Source: Cetorhinus maximus
Taxonomy: Eukaryota
Direction: 5' to 3'
Length of the DNA: 64,000 nucleotides
NCBI RefSeq assembly: GCF_964194155.1
Contig: NC_135899.1
Location: 2,790,001-2,854,000, forward strand
A model generated the notes under the pieces. The model saw only the letters and a program-made list of their open reading frames with translations. It did no database searches and had not been told where the DNA came from. Numbering within the stretch: position 1 is the stretch's first letter; every line of letters starts with the position of its first letter. The translations under genes and the position numbers were made by a program. Shown one piece after another: positions 2,555 to 49,109 of the stretch.

Positions 2555-2862
2555 GACCACATGGCACCTTAATGCGTTTTACAGCCAGTATGTTGTTGGT
2601 GTAACCATTGTGTAATGTAGGAAACTCAGCAGCCAATTTGAGCACAGCAAGAGCACAATGTGAACATGCCCATAGAATCGGTTTTGTGTGTGTGAGATGT
2701 TGACTGAGGGATAAATATTGGTTAGGAAGCCAGGGATAAATCCGCTGCTTTTCTTCCAAATAGTGCCCTGGAATCTTTTACAACCACTTGAGAGGGCAGA
2801 ATGGGGCCTCGGATTAATATGTCATCCGAAAGACGGCACCTCCGGCAGTGCAGCACTCCCTC
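2555..2862 (-). mobile_element. Deu-domain SINE fragment (SacSINE1-like)
   Basis: Minus strand GCACTGCCGGAGGTGCCGTCTTTCGGATGAC..GAGGCCCC..CAATATTTATCCCTCA; related copies near 15600-15990, 16120-16500, 40525-40810, 58025-58190, 59330-59550. Confidence 0.7.
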
Positions 2863-3099
2863 CTCAACCTTCTTACTCGGAGGAAAGAGCCTTTCCAGTT
2901 AAATAATTTGGGTCAATTTCGACGAGTCTTATATCTGAATACAAGGCATCTGTTTTCAGAACCGTCAAGTTCTTTTCTTCCCTTTATTGCCATCAGCCCA
3001 TAAGTTATTTTATCTCCTTTCTTTTGCTGATTTGGTGACCCATGTAGACGCCCAAGAAGGGGAAGCAGCAGCAGCAGAAGGTGCTCTGAAAAGTTGCAG

Positions 3100-3324
3100 C
3101 TAATTGCCACTGCCGTTTGCTGCTCTCGGGGTTTCTGCCGGACTCGAGTTAAAGGTTTGGGAATTGGCATATGTGGACCTTTTTTTCACTCCAGACGTCT
3201 CTCTGGACAGCTCGGCAGATTGAGAGGGGGGGTTGTTGCTCGTCTCAGGGCTGCCTTTGGTTTGAGAATTGGTGTCGGGGACATTCTCCCGCCTGTTTCT
3301 GAACTTCGGTGTGAGTTTACTTCG
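3100..3324 (-). other. Putative alternative terminal coding exon (74 codons + TAG) downstream of H1 gene B
   Basis: Polypyrimidine tract and CAG acceptor at 3325, open phase-0 frame RSKLTPKFRNRRENVPDT...GSGN*, AATAAA at 2983-2988. Confidence 0.45.
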
Positions 3325-4666
3325 CTGCCAGAGGAGGAGAGGAGAAAGGAGGCGAAACTAGCAGCAAAAACTTGCCCTTAATTGCATCGCTCATAACGAA
3401 CTGGGCAAAAGCACATCAACACAACCTGTGCATTGCAATGTATTGGTATATTTACCAGTGAAATGCAGGCATCGTCCCAGTCAATTGTGCAACCGATATG
3501 TTCATGTTAAACAAACGTATTAATGTTACTGTCTGTGAATATAAACCTAAGATCCAAAGTTTGCGATAACCCCGGGGGTCAAGGAACCAGCCATGTCGAT
3601 AACCGTCCACAAAAAATTAAATAATTTTATACAACATGTACGAAAATAAAAAATCCAATATCTATCCCACATTAAAAGCGATATCTACCCTTTTCCCCTT
3701 CGCCGTTTACACGTTAATTGTCTCAGACTCCTGCCAAATAACGTCATGGTTTCGGTGACAGAAATTGTGAAACGAAAGGTGCATTTTAAAGGTATAACCG
3801 ATTTCGTTTTTAAAGATACCCTCCAAATAAAACTGTAAATGCAGGGAAATCTCAGCAGTCCGCCCGCCCAGCATTTGAGAGAAAGGTGTCTCCAAAATGT
3901 TAATTAAAAAAACCCAAAGGCGCCTGTATTCAGGTTCAGCAGCACAATACATTTAAAGTAGCTATTGTCATGTTTTTAAAAGGTGGAAGATTGAATTTTT
4001 TTTTAAAAACACACACACACACACAAGAAGTGCTGGAAATACTCAGCAAGTCCGGTAGTTTCTGTGAGCGAGAAAGGGAGTTAAAAACGTTTCAGGTCAG
4101 GAATGGGGAGAAAGTTGGGTGAGTTGGTTTGAGGTTGATCCCCTGGTGAAAGGTCCCTGTGAAAAGTGGGAGTCGGGTATTCGGTGCTCATTCGCGTTTC
4201 CTTTTAATTTAAAGTTTAATTGGAGCGGGTGGACAAACTAAACCCCATTATATATATATATATATATATATACACCGCCCGGGAGGCGAGATGAGTGAAT
4301 ACTAACCCGCCCGGGACCCCCATAAAAGCAAAATGAATGTAAATAAATCAGCAATTGTGATCGATGGGGAAGGAGGGGGGGAAATCCTGTGACCCCTTCC
4401 GTGTGATCGCTCAAATCCTCCTTTGACGCTCTTTTAATCGGCGCCTTCAACCTTTTATCATCCAATAATCAAAAGAAATGTTCCCCCAAAGGGTGACTTG
4501 CTGACACAGAGACTTTTATTTCCTTTCCTCTCGCTTTTACAAATGGGCAAAAATCTAAATCTATTAATTTTCTTAACTTGAGCCAAATGGTTCCCCCGCC
4601 CAATCTTCGGAAGAAAATATTTGGCAGCTTTTTATGTGATCCAGCTCCCCTTCTGCTAAATTCGGT

Positions 4667-4682
4667 GGCTCTGAAAAGAGCC
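4667..4682 (-). terminator. Histone 3' stem-loop of H1-like gene B
   Basis: GGCTCTTTTCAGAGCC followed by AAGGGGAGCTGG HDE-like element. Confidence 0.95.
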
Positions 4683-4738
4683 TTTGTGTTATTGTTTTAG
4701 TTTTTCTTTTCCACGGAGGGAGACGAAGTTTCATCCCT

Positions 4739-5629
4739 TTACCGACGGGCGTAATTTACCCTCTTGGGCCCGAACGGGGGATATTTCCTCGGGCGCCCCA
4801 CCGACCGCTTGGGTTTGGAGCCGGCGGGCGGCCGCCGGCGGTGGATGTTGGCCCCGGCCGCCGTCTTCCTGCCGCCCCGGAGCGGCTTGTTCCTGCGGTA
4901 GGGCCGCGCCCGGCCTCCCCCGCCGCCGCCCCCTGCCTTGCCCCGGGCGGCTCCGGGCCGGCGGGCGGGTTTGAGCTTGCGGCGGGTCGGCGCCGCCTTC
5001 CTGGGCTTCCTGGCGGTCGCCCCCTTGCGCCGGGCGGCGGCGGCTCCTCCTCCTCGGGGTTTCTTGGCGGCGGCCGAGCTCTTGGCCTGCGACCCTTTCC
5101 TGGAAGCGGTCGGCGTGGCTTTGACGGGCGCCGACGTTTTCTTCTTGGGGGCCCCGCCGCCCGTCTCGTCTTTGAGCGGGGCCGTGCCGGCCGCCGCCGG
5201 GGGGAGGGTCGCCGCCGCCGCCGCAGCCACTCCTCCCCCTCCTCCTCCAAGGCCGGCGCCCAGGGCCGGCGTGTCGGCGCGGATCCGGGAGCGGTTGAAG
5301 CGGAAGGAGCCCGCGGCTCCCACCCCGGCCGTCTGCACCAGCGAGCCGTTCCGCACCAGCTGCTTGACCGTCTGGTTGACCCGCGTGTTGTTGCGGCACA
5401 CGTCGTAGCCCTTGGCCGAAAGCGCCTTCTTGAGGGCGGCCAGCGAGATTCCCCGCCGCTCCTTGGTGGCCGCCGCCACCTGCAGGATGCGCTGGGTGAC
5501 CGTGGGCCCCGTCTTCTTGCGGCGGGGCGAGGAGCGCGGCGGCGGCAGCTGCTGCTTCTTCTTCCGGGCGATCGCCTTCTCCACGCTCAACTCGCCGACG
5601 TCTTCCACTTTCTGGCTGTTGTCGGCCAT
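4739..5629 (-). CDS. H1: Long Arg/Gly/Ala-rich linker histone H1-like protein B (296 aa)
   Basis: Globular domain PTVTQRILQVAAATKERRGISLAALKKALSAKGYDV..GSLVQTAGVGAAGSFRF; TATA and H1 box upstream; stem-loop downstream. Confidence 0.92.
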   Translation of the reverse strand: MADNSQKVEDVGELSVEKAIARKKKQQLPPPRSSPRRKKTGPTVTQRILQVAAATKERRGISLAALKKALSAKGYDVCRNNTRVNQTVKQLVRNGSLVQTAGVGAAGSFRFNRSRIRADTPALGAGLGGGGGGVAAAAAATLPPAAAGTAPLKDETGGGAPKKKTSAPVKATPTASRKGSQAKSSAAAKKPRGGGAAAARRKGATARKPRKAAPTRRKLKPARRPGAARGKAGGGGGGGRARPYRRNKPLRGGRKTAAGANIHRRRPPAGSKPKRSVGRPRKYPPFGPKRVNYARR

Positions 5630-5796: not shown

Positions 5797-5940
5797 TTAT
5801 ATAGGGCAAAGGCGGACGGAGTGGAGGAGACTTCCGCCCCTCACATCCCCCTCCCCCCCCCCCCCACAACCTTTCCCCCCGCCCCCTCCCCCTCCCCCAA
5901 CCACCCACCCGCTTCCCTCTCCCTCCTCAAGTTTGTGTTT
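5797..5940 (-). promoter_or_regulatory. H1 gene B promoter within a CpG island (about 4740-6330)
   Basis: TATATAA 5797-5803, G-rich boxes, H1-specific AC box AAACACA 5934-5940. Confidence 0.75.
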
Positions 5941-18231: not shown

Positions 18232-18332
18232 AAACACGCACAAGGGCAGGGGGCGGGGCCAAAGGGGCGGCGGCGGCGGCTGCGGCTGCGCGGCGGTTTG
18301 TCTCGCCCGCGTCCTCCTTACACCTATATAAA
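18232..18332 (+). promoter_or_regulatory. H1 gene C promoter
   Basis: AAACACG (H1-box variant) at 18232, GC box GGGGCGGGG at about 18250, TATATAAA 18325-18332. Confidence 0.75.
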
Positions 18333-18381
18333 TAGCTGCTGCCGCCCCGCGGGCTCATTGTTGCGACGCTGCCGCCTGTTG

Positions 18382-19035
18382 ATGGCTGAGGTTGTTGTAC
18401 CTGATCAGGTGGACGTGCCACCTCCGCCGCCCATGATGGTGACGACGGCGACGCCGCCGGCCGTTGCCGCTGGCAGCGCCTACACCCTCCTCGCACCCTC
18501 CATTCCCGCGCCTGTCGACCCAGCTTCCCCGGTGCCGCCGCCGCCCCTCCCCACTGCCGCCGTCGCCAAGAAGAAGAACACTTACCGTCCGCAGAAAGCG
18601 GCCACCGTCGGCACGGTGGCCGAGCACATCCTGGAAGCCGTGGCCGCCACCAAGGAACGCCGGGCCCCCGCCGCCCTGGCCGCCAGGCAGAAAAACGTCT
18701 CGGCCGCCGCTTACGACGTGGAGGGGGCCGGCGTCCCGCCCGTGCACCCGACCGTCAAGGCGCCCACCAGCAAAGGGCCGTCGACGCTAGGCGAAGGCGG
18801 CCCGGCTCCTCTCCAAAGCGGCACCGCGCCAGAGGCGGAGGGAGGGATGCAGAAGAAACCCGGAAGTAGAAAAAGGTCTCCTCCGAGGGCGACATCGGCG
18901 GCCAGAAAGCCGCATAAAAACTCCAAGGGGCTGAAAACGCTCAGACGGTCGGCGACCAAGCCGAAAAAAGCCCCCAAGCGGCCGGCAACGTGCAGGCCTG
19001 TGGGGCGTAAGCGGGTGGCGGGGAAGAGGAGGTAG
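18382..19035 (+). CDS. H1-derived protein C with Pro-rich N terminus and degenerate globular domain (217 aa)
   Basis: Helix 1 TVAEHILEAVAATKERR and AYDV retained; helix 3/wing diverged; basic tail; ORF intact with TATA and stem-loop. Confidence 0.8.
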   Translation: MAEVVVPDQVDVPPPPPMMVTTATPPAVAAGSAYTLLAPSIPAPVDPASPVPPPPLPTAAVAKKKNTYRPQKAATVGTVAEHILEAVAATKERRAPAALAARQKNVSAAAYDVEGAGVPPVHPTVKAPTSKGPSTLGEGGPAPLQSGTAPEAEGGMQKKPGSRKRSPPRATSAARKPHKNSKGLKTLRRSATKPKKAPKRPATCRPVGRKRVAGKRR

Positions 19036-20821: not shown

Positions 20822-20874
20822 TGAGGCGGACGCCGCACCTTTCATGTGACTTGTGTTGGTCCGAGTTGAGTGCA

Positions 20875-21261
20875 ATGCCTGACTTGGCGGCTGCGACGAA
20901 GGGCGGTGCGTCCCGCAAGGCGTCGAAACAGTCGCTGATTAAAGTCACCAAGAAGCCGCCCAAGAAGCGAAGAAAATCTCGCAAGCAGAGCTATTCCATC
21001 TACGTGTACAGGGTGCTGACCCAGGTCCACCCTTCCACCAGGATCTCGTCCAAGGCCATGAGCGTCATGAATTCCTTCGTTGTCGACATTTTCGAGCGCA
21101 TCGCTTCCGAGGCGTCGCACCTCATCCACTACAACAAGCGCCGCACCATTTCGGCCCGGGAGATCCAGAGCGCCGTCCGCCTCATGCTGCCGGGGGAACT
21201 GGCCAAACACGCCGTCTCCGAAGGCACCAAAGCGGTCACCAAGTACACCAACTCCGTTTAG
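20875..21261 (+). CDS. H2B: Divergent histone H2B variant 1 (128 aa)
   Basis: Histone fold [36 protein letters not shown]; intronless. Confidence 0.96.
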
Positions 21262-37514: not shown

Positions 37515-37895
37515 CTATTTGCAGCTGGTATATTTAGTGACAGCCTTGGTGCCCTCGGAGACGGCGTGTTTGGCCAGTTCCCCCGGCAACAGGAGGCGGA
37601 CGGTGGTCTGGATCTCCCGGGAAGAGATGGTGTGCCGTTTGCTGTAGCGGATCAGGCGGGAAGCCTCGCAGGCGATGCGCTCGAAGATGTCGTTGACGAA
37701 CGAGTTGATGACACTCATGGCTGAAGAGGAAATGCCGGTGTCGGGGTGGACTTGCTTCAGCACCTTGTAGATGTAGATGCTGTAACTCTCCTTCCTGCTT
37801 TTCTTGCGCTTCTTCTCACCTTTGCCGCGTTTCTTAGTGGCAGTTTTCTTTGGCCCTTTTTTAGGAGCCATGCCCTTAGCAGCCGCTTCAGGCAT
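37515..37895 (-). CDS. H2B: Divergent Cys-containing histone H2B variant 2 (126 aa)
   Basis: Histone fold with [16 protein letters not shown] and C-terminal TSCK. Confidence 0.96.
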
Positions 37896-37936
37896 TCCGA
37901 ATGAAAGTGGTGAACAAAGCAGCCTTGAGCGCCTCA

Positions 37937-46012: not shown

Positions 46013-46681
46013 ATGGCTTCGGGCGACCTGCTCGAAGGCCCCTCCCGAGGCAGGAAGGTGAGGAGGCGGAGGAGCCCGGCCAAGGTGTGGCAGGGGGCGC
46101 CGGCGGCGGCGGGGGGAGCGCCCACCATGGCCGCCCACATCCTGGAGGTGGTGGCGTCTTCCCGGGAGCGCCGCGGCCTCTCGCTGGCCGGCGTCAAGAA
46201 GGCGCTGTCGGCCGCCGGCTACGATGTGCCGCGGATCAACTCGCGGGTGAACCAGGCGGTCCGGGGCCTGGTCACCGAGGGTTCGCTGCTGCAGACGGCG
46301 GGCACCGGGGCCTCGGGCTCCTTCAGGATCAACCGGCAGCACCTGGACGGCCAGAGCCGCCCGGCGGCCGCCGCCGCTGCTCCGACACCCAAAGCCCGGG
46401 GCCGGCGGGGGAGACCGGCCGCCGGCCGCAAGGGGAAGATGAAGAGGAGCCCGGCCCGGGTGAAGGTGAAGAAGCCGAAGCCGGGCGGCCGGAGCAAGGG
46501 CGGCGCCGGCCCGAGGAAAGTCTCCAAGGGCAGCGGCGTCCGGAGGCCGCGCGGGCGGCCCCGGAAAGTGGCCAAGGAGCCGGCGCCAGGGGCTGATCCG
46601 GCCGCCCGGGGAGAGGAAGGTGAACCAGGGGCCGGAGCTGAGAACATCCCCGGGGGAACCGGACAAGGAGCAAAACGGTGA
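46013..46681 (+). CDS. H1: Arg-rich H1-like protein D with AT-hook (222 aa)
   Basis: PTMAAHILEVV..ERRGLSLAGVKKALSAAGYDV..GSLLQTAGTGASGSFRI; RRPRGRPRK in the tail. Confidence 0.92.
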   Translation: MASGDLLEGPSRGRKVRRRRSPAKVWQGAPAAAGGAPTMAAHILEVVASSRERRGLSLAGVKKALSAAGYDVPRINSRVNQAVRGLVTEGSLLQTAGTGASGSFRINRQHLDGQSRPAAAAAAPTPKARGRRGRPAAGRKGKMKRSPARVKVKKPKPGGRSKGGAGPRKVSKGSGVRRPRGRPRKVAKEPAPGADPAARGEEGEPGAGAENIPGGTGQGAKR

Positions 46682-48701: not shown

Positions 48702-49109
48702 ATGCCGACCGCCGCCGTTTCCACCAGCGCCACGGCTGTCGGCGCCAAGGGCTCCCTCTCCAAGAAAGGCTCGAAGAAAACGGCGATGAAGATGTCCAGG
48801 AAGGGCGACAGGAAGCACAGGCGGAGCAGGAAGGAGAGTTACAGCATCTACATCTACAAGGTGCTGAAGCAAGTCCACCCGGACACCGGCATCTCCTCCA
48901 AGGCCATGAGCGTCATCAACTCGTTCGTCAGCGACATCTTCGAGCGGGTGGCCGGCGAGGCTTCCCGCCTGGTCCATTACACCAGGCGGCAGACTATCTC
49001 CTCCCGGGAGATCCAGAGCGCCGTCCGCCTCCTGCTGCCGGGGGAACTGGCCAAACACGCCGTCTCCGAGGGCACCAAGGCGGTCACCAAGTACACCAGC
49101 TCCAAGTAG
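48702..49109 (+). CDS. H2B: Histone H2B variant 3 with extended N-tail (135 aa)
   Basis: [17 protein letters not shown]..; histone fold intact. Confidence 0.96.

Follow-up and report, generated by a model that had tools for sequence, protein, structure and literature searches.

The DNA analysed here, a window of 64,000 nucleotides (C22:2790001-2854000 of the 3.99-Gb Cetorhinus maximus genome), contains divergent histone genes in a cluster, and Rfam detects six histone stem-loops there. One of these genes, an H1 variant (‘H1-B'), occupies 4739..5629 on the minus strand as a single exon of 296 codons, as delimited by its open reading frame, Pfam and shark orthologs. The globular H1 domain (GH1, PF00538) spans residues 42-111 (5297..5506, minus strand; E 2e-15, 57.1 bits against a cut-off of 22.4), and the long C-terminal tail is rich in Arg, Lys, Gly and Ala and basic (73 K+R versus 10 D+E over the 296 residues), ending in GRPRKYPPFGPKRVNYARR; the gene is a real linker histone H1. 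A putative TATA box (TATATAA) is found at 5797..5803 on the same strand. Past the stop by 56 nt lies a 16-nt histone 3′ stem-loop (4667..4682, minus strand), which is matched by the Rfam Histone3 family (RF00032; 4641-4687, 36.1 bits) and folds with a z-score of −4.01; an intronless CDS followed by such a stem-loop is the layout of a replication-dependent type of gene. The purine-rich element AGAAGGGGAGCTG at 4642..4654 (minus strand) is, going by the consensus, the likely U7-binding histone downstream element. Spacing between stop and stem-loop is 25-78 nt across 15 stem-loop genes listed nearby, a list that includes near-duplicate rows and one gap-filled ORF. Normal messages of the H1 gene would be cut 3′ of the stem-loop via the SLBP/U7 route and translated into the 296-aa H1, this route and the poly(A) route discussed below both being taken from established histone biology.

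Several other variants accompany this gene. Near-canonical H3 and H2A genes have as neighbours three divergent H2B variants (20872-21258, 37518-37898 and 48702-49106), all of which possess a stem-loop. H1-like stem-loop genes are present in the window at 18262-19035 (plus strand) and at loci L045, L072 and L076; the one at 18262-19035 returned no Pfam globular-domain match, which suggests that this domain is strongly altered. Much of the variant-histone cluster is present a second time at C22:2.50-2.57 Mb, with an identical 222-aa H1 and an identical H2A, along with a 324-aa paralog of the present H1 that carries poly-Q; this copy is either a segmental duplication or redundant assembly. Large canonical-looking H1 arrays reside on other contigs (C32 and C39).

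The original prediction was that the same gene also yields a spliced, polyadenylated message that skips the stem-loop, and the geometry of that proposal was reproduced throughout: a donor AGG|GTAAAT at 4760/4759, in phase 0 past codon 290 and six codons ahead of the stop; an acceptor ending in TCTGGCAG at 3325/3324; a 1435-nt intron within which the true stem-loop (Rfam Histone3, 4641-4687) falls; and a joined product of 364 aa. In such an isoform, restricted to lamniforms, U7 cleavage would be skipped, U1 would use the donor inside the CDS, and the stem-loop would be spliced out together with a proximal AATAAA; translation of the resulting polyadenylated message would give an H1 of 364 aa in which the last six residues are exchanged for a 74-aa disordered tail rich in S, T, N and P and bearing kinase-type SP/TP/SQ sites. 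We regard this isoform as unlikely, and the evidence on it begins with the splice sites themselves.

The candidate donor (4754..4762, minus strand), whose GT belongs to the Val291 codon, is only moderately strong, as the prediction had conceded, with seven of nine consensus matches and no G at +5; donors of at least 7/9 occur at ~2.1 per kb of genome background and close to the end of two of the 15 listed stem-loop genes, where all splice scores are simple counts of consensus matches compared with genome background. It is positioned 18 nt 5′ of the stop, inside the CDS, and thus forms a candidate 5′ splice site upstream of the stem-loop; between the stop and the stem-loop of the 296-aa H1 no donor of at least 6/9 was found. 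The candidate acceptor (3325..3352, minus strand) is a C-rich tract followed by GGCAG, and its 22 of 23 pyrimidines place it among the top 0.03 per kb of genome background. This strong pyrimidine tract favours splicing, and against it stands the weak branch point: no yTnAy was found within 70 nt of the acceptor, the single A between −47 and −3 is part of a competing AG, an upstream AG ends at −33, and the branch-point context is poor. A second AG, with 19 of 23 pyrimidines, is located at 3319-3320 (minus strand), 5 nt past the candidate acceptor; if used, it would place a stop straight after codon 290 and leave a nearly unchanged H1 of 290 aa.

Conservation of the donor was read from orthologs at the protein level. 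The gene is already annotated in related sharks, and newness applies to the candidate isoform only: among 28 matches the closest relative is a Carcharodon ‘histone H1-like' protein (XP_041068396.1), 93% identical over aligned columns, and that of Rhincodon (XP_020369819.2) is 72% identical, both with the same C-terminal end. As the phase-0 GT requires a Val codon, the residue at this position is informative: Val is found in one of eight orthologs (Carcharodon), Ser in four carpet-shark proteins and Gly in two (Heterodontus and Heptranchias), while the eighth, from Mustelus, is frame-shifted at the donor and reads QER, like the +1 frame of the old genomic copy described below, from which Gly is deduced. 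The annotated C-terminus of Mustelus asterias XP_078075175.1 equals the +1 frame of the conserved end, so that a frameshift or an error in assembly probably underlies this model. Since the Val codon is absent from seven of eight orthologs (protein level) and the segment running from GRP[RK]K to the stop keeps its 19-20 aa in seven of eight, the donor is young and the end that it would splice off is old. The donor GT may stem from a codon change, Gly to Val, on the lamniform lineage, and would be used, if at all, at leak level.

The GRP[RK]K motif itself, AT-hook-like and kept in all eight orthologs, is located at 4742-4800 (minus strand) and has no Pfam match here; the H1 gene at 46013 carries a similar RRPRGRPRK (46517-46636, plus strand), for which the Pfam AT_hook score of 14.9 bits is below the threshold of 17.4. 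A GH1 domain with an AT-hook-like C-terminus in these shark H1 variants may recall, by analogy, the plant GH1-HMGA proteins.

Absence from seven of the eight orthologs counts against the lamniform isoform, whereas the donor codon shared with Carcharodon, and apparently with the species of sequencing run X1, counts for it. As for the product, the 74-aa tail is present in none of the 13 best matches read, nor in any elasmobranch ortholog read, such as XP_041068396.1 and XP_020369819.2, and of the 28 matches no protein longer than 312 aa is an ortholog (lengths of 162-518 were searched), with the proviso that ortholog annotations may miss tissue-specific isoforms. The Carcharodon protein cluster has a single member, and none of the 275 pattern matches from a metagenome scan for DNA of other sharks was confirmed.

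The candidate terminal exon (3100..3324, minus strand) does consist of 74 in-frame open codons followed by a TAG stop at 3102-3100, and the predicted phosphorylation-type sites are there (four SP/TP and three SQ/TQ). To ask how unusual this layout is, the whole pattern was defined as an acceptor plus an open 74-codon frame plus AATAAA. In 607 kb of background (both strands), the whole pattern was absent from all 19 acceptors in which 21 or more of 23 positions were pyrimidines; at 18 of 23 or more, seven of 432 had it in some frame, or ~2-3% per 2-2.5 kb. At a random position of that background, an open 74-codon frame is met in 6% of cases and an AATAAA within 150 nt in 10%, and the exon frame stayed open in 2,977 of 20,000 dinucleotide shuffles, in which the low T content (14%) is kept. 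At the observed thresholds, which were set post hoc, the layout is therefore less frequent than ordinary chance would give.

The composition of the frame is more striking. Only 8% of its residues are hydrophobic, a value inside the 4-10% range of real H1 tails here; nine of the 2,977 open shuffles and none of 662 background 74-codon frames are equally poor. When acceptor, frame and poly(A) signal were sought with relaxed thresholds in 808 kb, 168 patterns were obtained, of which seven were at most 12% hydrophobic, and six of these seven lie inside real H1 genes. The statistic was picked after the peptide had been seen, and repeats and cluster duplicates are part of the backgrounds; this hydrophobic-poor composition, which the first reading did not bring up, is the strongest point for a spliced isoform, is discounted as post hoc and remains unexplained. 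Further points on the same side are that the T-poor, hydrophobic-poor frame is in phase with the donor (one in three by chance), that four or more SP/TP sites are found in just 1.5% of background frames, and that two other H1 proteins in the window also have polar or acidic tails at their ends. What looks like an internal repeat in the peptide (NSQT...SP.ET) was rejected as not significant (674 of 1,000 shuffles) and counts against the isoform; high downstream CpG (observed/expected 0.8) was likewise dropped as an exon-specific sign, being common to three of seven other histone genes checked.

Searches with the 74-aa peptide gave no match among longer proteins, none among proteins of near length and no Pfam family. 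The sole phmmer match in 1.84 billion proteins, a bacterial Ig-repeat adhesin, is spurious, its score being a sum over 10 repeats with 26.6 bits for the best stretch. Over three protein searches, the peptide is thus without a credible homolog.

Polyadenylation of a message from this gene would have two candidate AATAAA signals at its disposal. The distal one, as predicted, is at 2983..2988 (minus strand), 111 nt past the exon stop, and is followed by purine-rich rather than GT/T-rich sequence. The proximal one (4515..4520, minus strand), which the first reading lacked, lies within the proposed intron, 146 nt past the stem-loop, and is followed by GT/T-rich sequence; ATTAAA is also present within the intron at 4438, 4220 and 4208. 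Because a poly(A) signal follows within 600 nt downstream in 14 of the 15 listed stem-loop genes, the proximal AATAAA is not special, and given its presence at 4520, splicing is unnecessary for polyadenylation. A read-through poly(A) message would most simply end at this signal, unspliced, as that of human HIST1H1C does.

Just beyond the exon stop, a ‘decayed stem-loop' had been proposed. The motif stands: the 11-mer CTTTTCAGAGC at 3083..3093 (minus strand) matches the loop and 3′ arm of the histone stem-loop. The structure does not, with no hairpin of a 6-bp stem and 4-nt loop, a folding z-score of +1.22, no Rfam stem-loop match at 3093-3083 and no purine-rich downstream element beside it. 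The exact 11-mer occurs eight times in 567 kb, and the other seven occurrences are real stem-loops. This rarity beside a stop, the coding-like composition of the stretch and the many duplicated H1 variants with polar tails in the cluster would fit a relic of former coding DNA, for example what is left of the 3′ end of an H1 paralog since lost, which is now downstream of the present gene and not spliced to it. Such an origin is, in our judgement, quite improbable: neither in the ~240 kb that surround the cluster nor in the rest of the genome does the stretch show likeness to H1 paralogs, no globular-domain remnant is found between 4660 and 3324, the purine-rich downstream element is absent, and the 11-mer would begin 2 nt past the stop, versus 25-78 nt in the 15 listed genes.

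Copies of the gene elsewhere in the genome offer a view of its past messages. Genome comparison revealed three independent H1 copies without promoter: a triplicated, frameshifted one (C22 at 9.81 and 10.05 Mb, and C239) that spans 5749-4695; an older one (C5:117.95 Mb) that spans 5747-4666, carries GGA as its donor codon and terminates with the stem-loop, to which an A-rich tail is attached; and one of 85 bp with a short flanking repeat (C1:80.45 Mb). Two of them start no more than 2 nt apart (5749 and 5747) and two end at one A-rich spot (~4695). From these ends we infer an mRNA origin, and thus germline expression of the H1 gene; the ends also suggest internal priming, and the stem-loop plus A-rich end of the C5 copy points, indirectly, to messages that end at the stem-loop. 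All three copies are unspliced across the donor position, where GT is present in two; as retrocopies, they sample germline messages only (n=3, one older than the donor).

DNA of the exon exists at only two places in the genome, neither of which joins it to an H1 CDS. The second place is a 98.9% identical copy of a 972-bp segment (2559..3530, minus strand), without H1, on contig C306 (L043:6700-7671); it adjoins a broken young high-copy repeat in a RING-finger-like (TRIM-like) pseudogene region and extends ~420 nt beyond the distal AATAAA. That it is a spliced retrocopy was rejected, as 205 nt upstream of the acceptor are included and H1 sequence is absent. The two copies differ at 11 positions, all of them outside the 222-nt frame (P=0.057). 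As contigs of sample S2 continue through 3530 without a break, the C306 copy may be specific to one individual or an artefact of assembly.

Sequencing runs were consulted as contigs: X1, from another species, and X6 are RNA only by guess, and X2 and X3 look like genomic DNA from a single sample. One X1 contig covers 4548-5419, crossing donor and stem-loop without a joint at 4760, and among its differences listed, from which 16 are left out, none falls at 4737-4806. This shows that the unspliced form is present there as RNA or DNA, and is compatible with a minor spliced form. The same contig ends, with no loose end, at 4548, which leaves 28 nt to the proximal AATAAA; as the observation comes from one study only, it was not counted. 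The absence of cover over 2938-3944 in X1 and X6 (at 85% likeness; for X1 also at 80%), and that of X6 contigs over the H1 gene, counts neither way. No 4760-3324 junction was found among the joints listed for the contigs examined, and its absence from these joints, from the genomic copies and from protein databases weighs against the lamniform isoform.

Human stem-loop histone genes provide the nearest precedents. In Lyons et al. 2016 (PMC5100578), ten of them are expressed with poly(A), six of the ten spliced; in HIST1H2BC, HIST1H2BD and HIST1H2BK the stem-loop is spliced out from a donor placed past the stop and ahead of the stem-loop. Kari et al. 2013 (PMC3661734) place spliced histone poly(A) messages on polysomes. 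As in these H2B genes, the 5′ splice site of the shark H1 candidate is ahead of the stem-loop, which splicing would remove, and the human cases to that extent lend the lamniform isoform support. The H2B genes give a poly(A) message in differentiated cells with an unchanged protein, and junction reads exist for them (PMC5100578, PMC3661734). Their donors sit past the stop and, in two of the genes, show conservation across mammals (PMC5100578), which argues against the isoform; in contrast, the shark donor is inside the CDS, would alter the protein, is lineage-restricted and is a candidate only. On sequence grounds, the candidate would work as the H2B case does, yet is no member of that class, since its donor lies in the CDS and is not conserved.

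H2A.Z.2 is a replication-independent variant gene that contains introns and has no stem-loop. Its primate isoform H2A.Z.2.2 swaps the histone C-terminus by splicing (PMC8015243, 10.1101/720235), and the lineage-restricted splicing of the shark gene would do likewise; the H2A.Z.2.2 isoform is shorter, whereas the shark stem-loop H1 would gain a tail. HIST1H1C, the sole H1 gene in PMC5100578, is polyadenylated and unspliced, and H2A.X has both 3′ ends (PMC8015243, 10.1101/720235). Like HIST1H1C, HIST2H2BE, HIST2H2AA3 and H2A.X, the shark H1 has an intact stem-loop followed by AATAAA (at 146 nt); unlike in this human unspliced poly(A) set (PMC5100578, PMC8015243), use of its 4520 signal is deduced. 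A literature search, thin on subscription papers, returned no report of this shark gene and no protein-changing splice in any stem-loop histone gene.

Taken together, comparative evidence leans against a conserved isoform, because the donor is missing in seven of eight orthologs, the three mRNA-like copies show no splicing and searches gave no homolog for the exon peptide, while the coding-like composition of the exon leans the other way. The reading that we prefer, at a probability of roughly 60%, is that the locus carries a single-exon shark H1 variant with an intact stem-loop end, and that the downstream in-frame stretch is a cryptic exon and not a functional alternative C-terminus. The locus would then be nothing unusual within a family of shark H1 variants that evolves fast. 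A more doubtful proposal is that one Gly-to-Val change made the donor and recruited the terminal exon, so that in lamniforms one gene would give, besides an S-phase H1, a polyadenylated H1 that bears a new, phosphorylatable tail of 74 aa. If so, choice of 3′ end and protein sequence would switch together, which is undescribed for stem-loop histone genes in the literature read, and the birth of the exon from one point change would be datable. The removal of the stem-loop by splicing, which in mammals goes with expression in non-dividing cells, would extend to cartilaginous fish and to H1, and the switch would alter the protein itself by placing a less basic, kinase-site-rich tail on the H1 domain that sets chromatin compaction.
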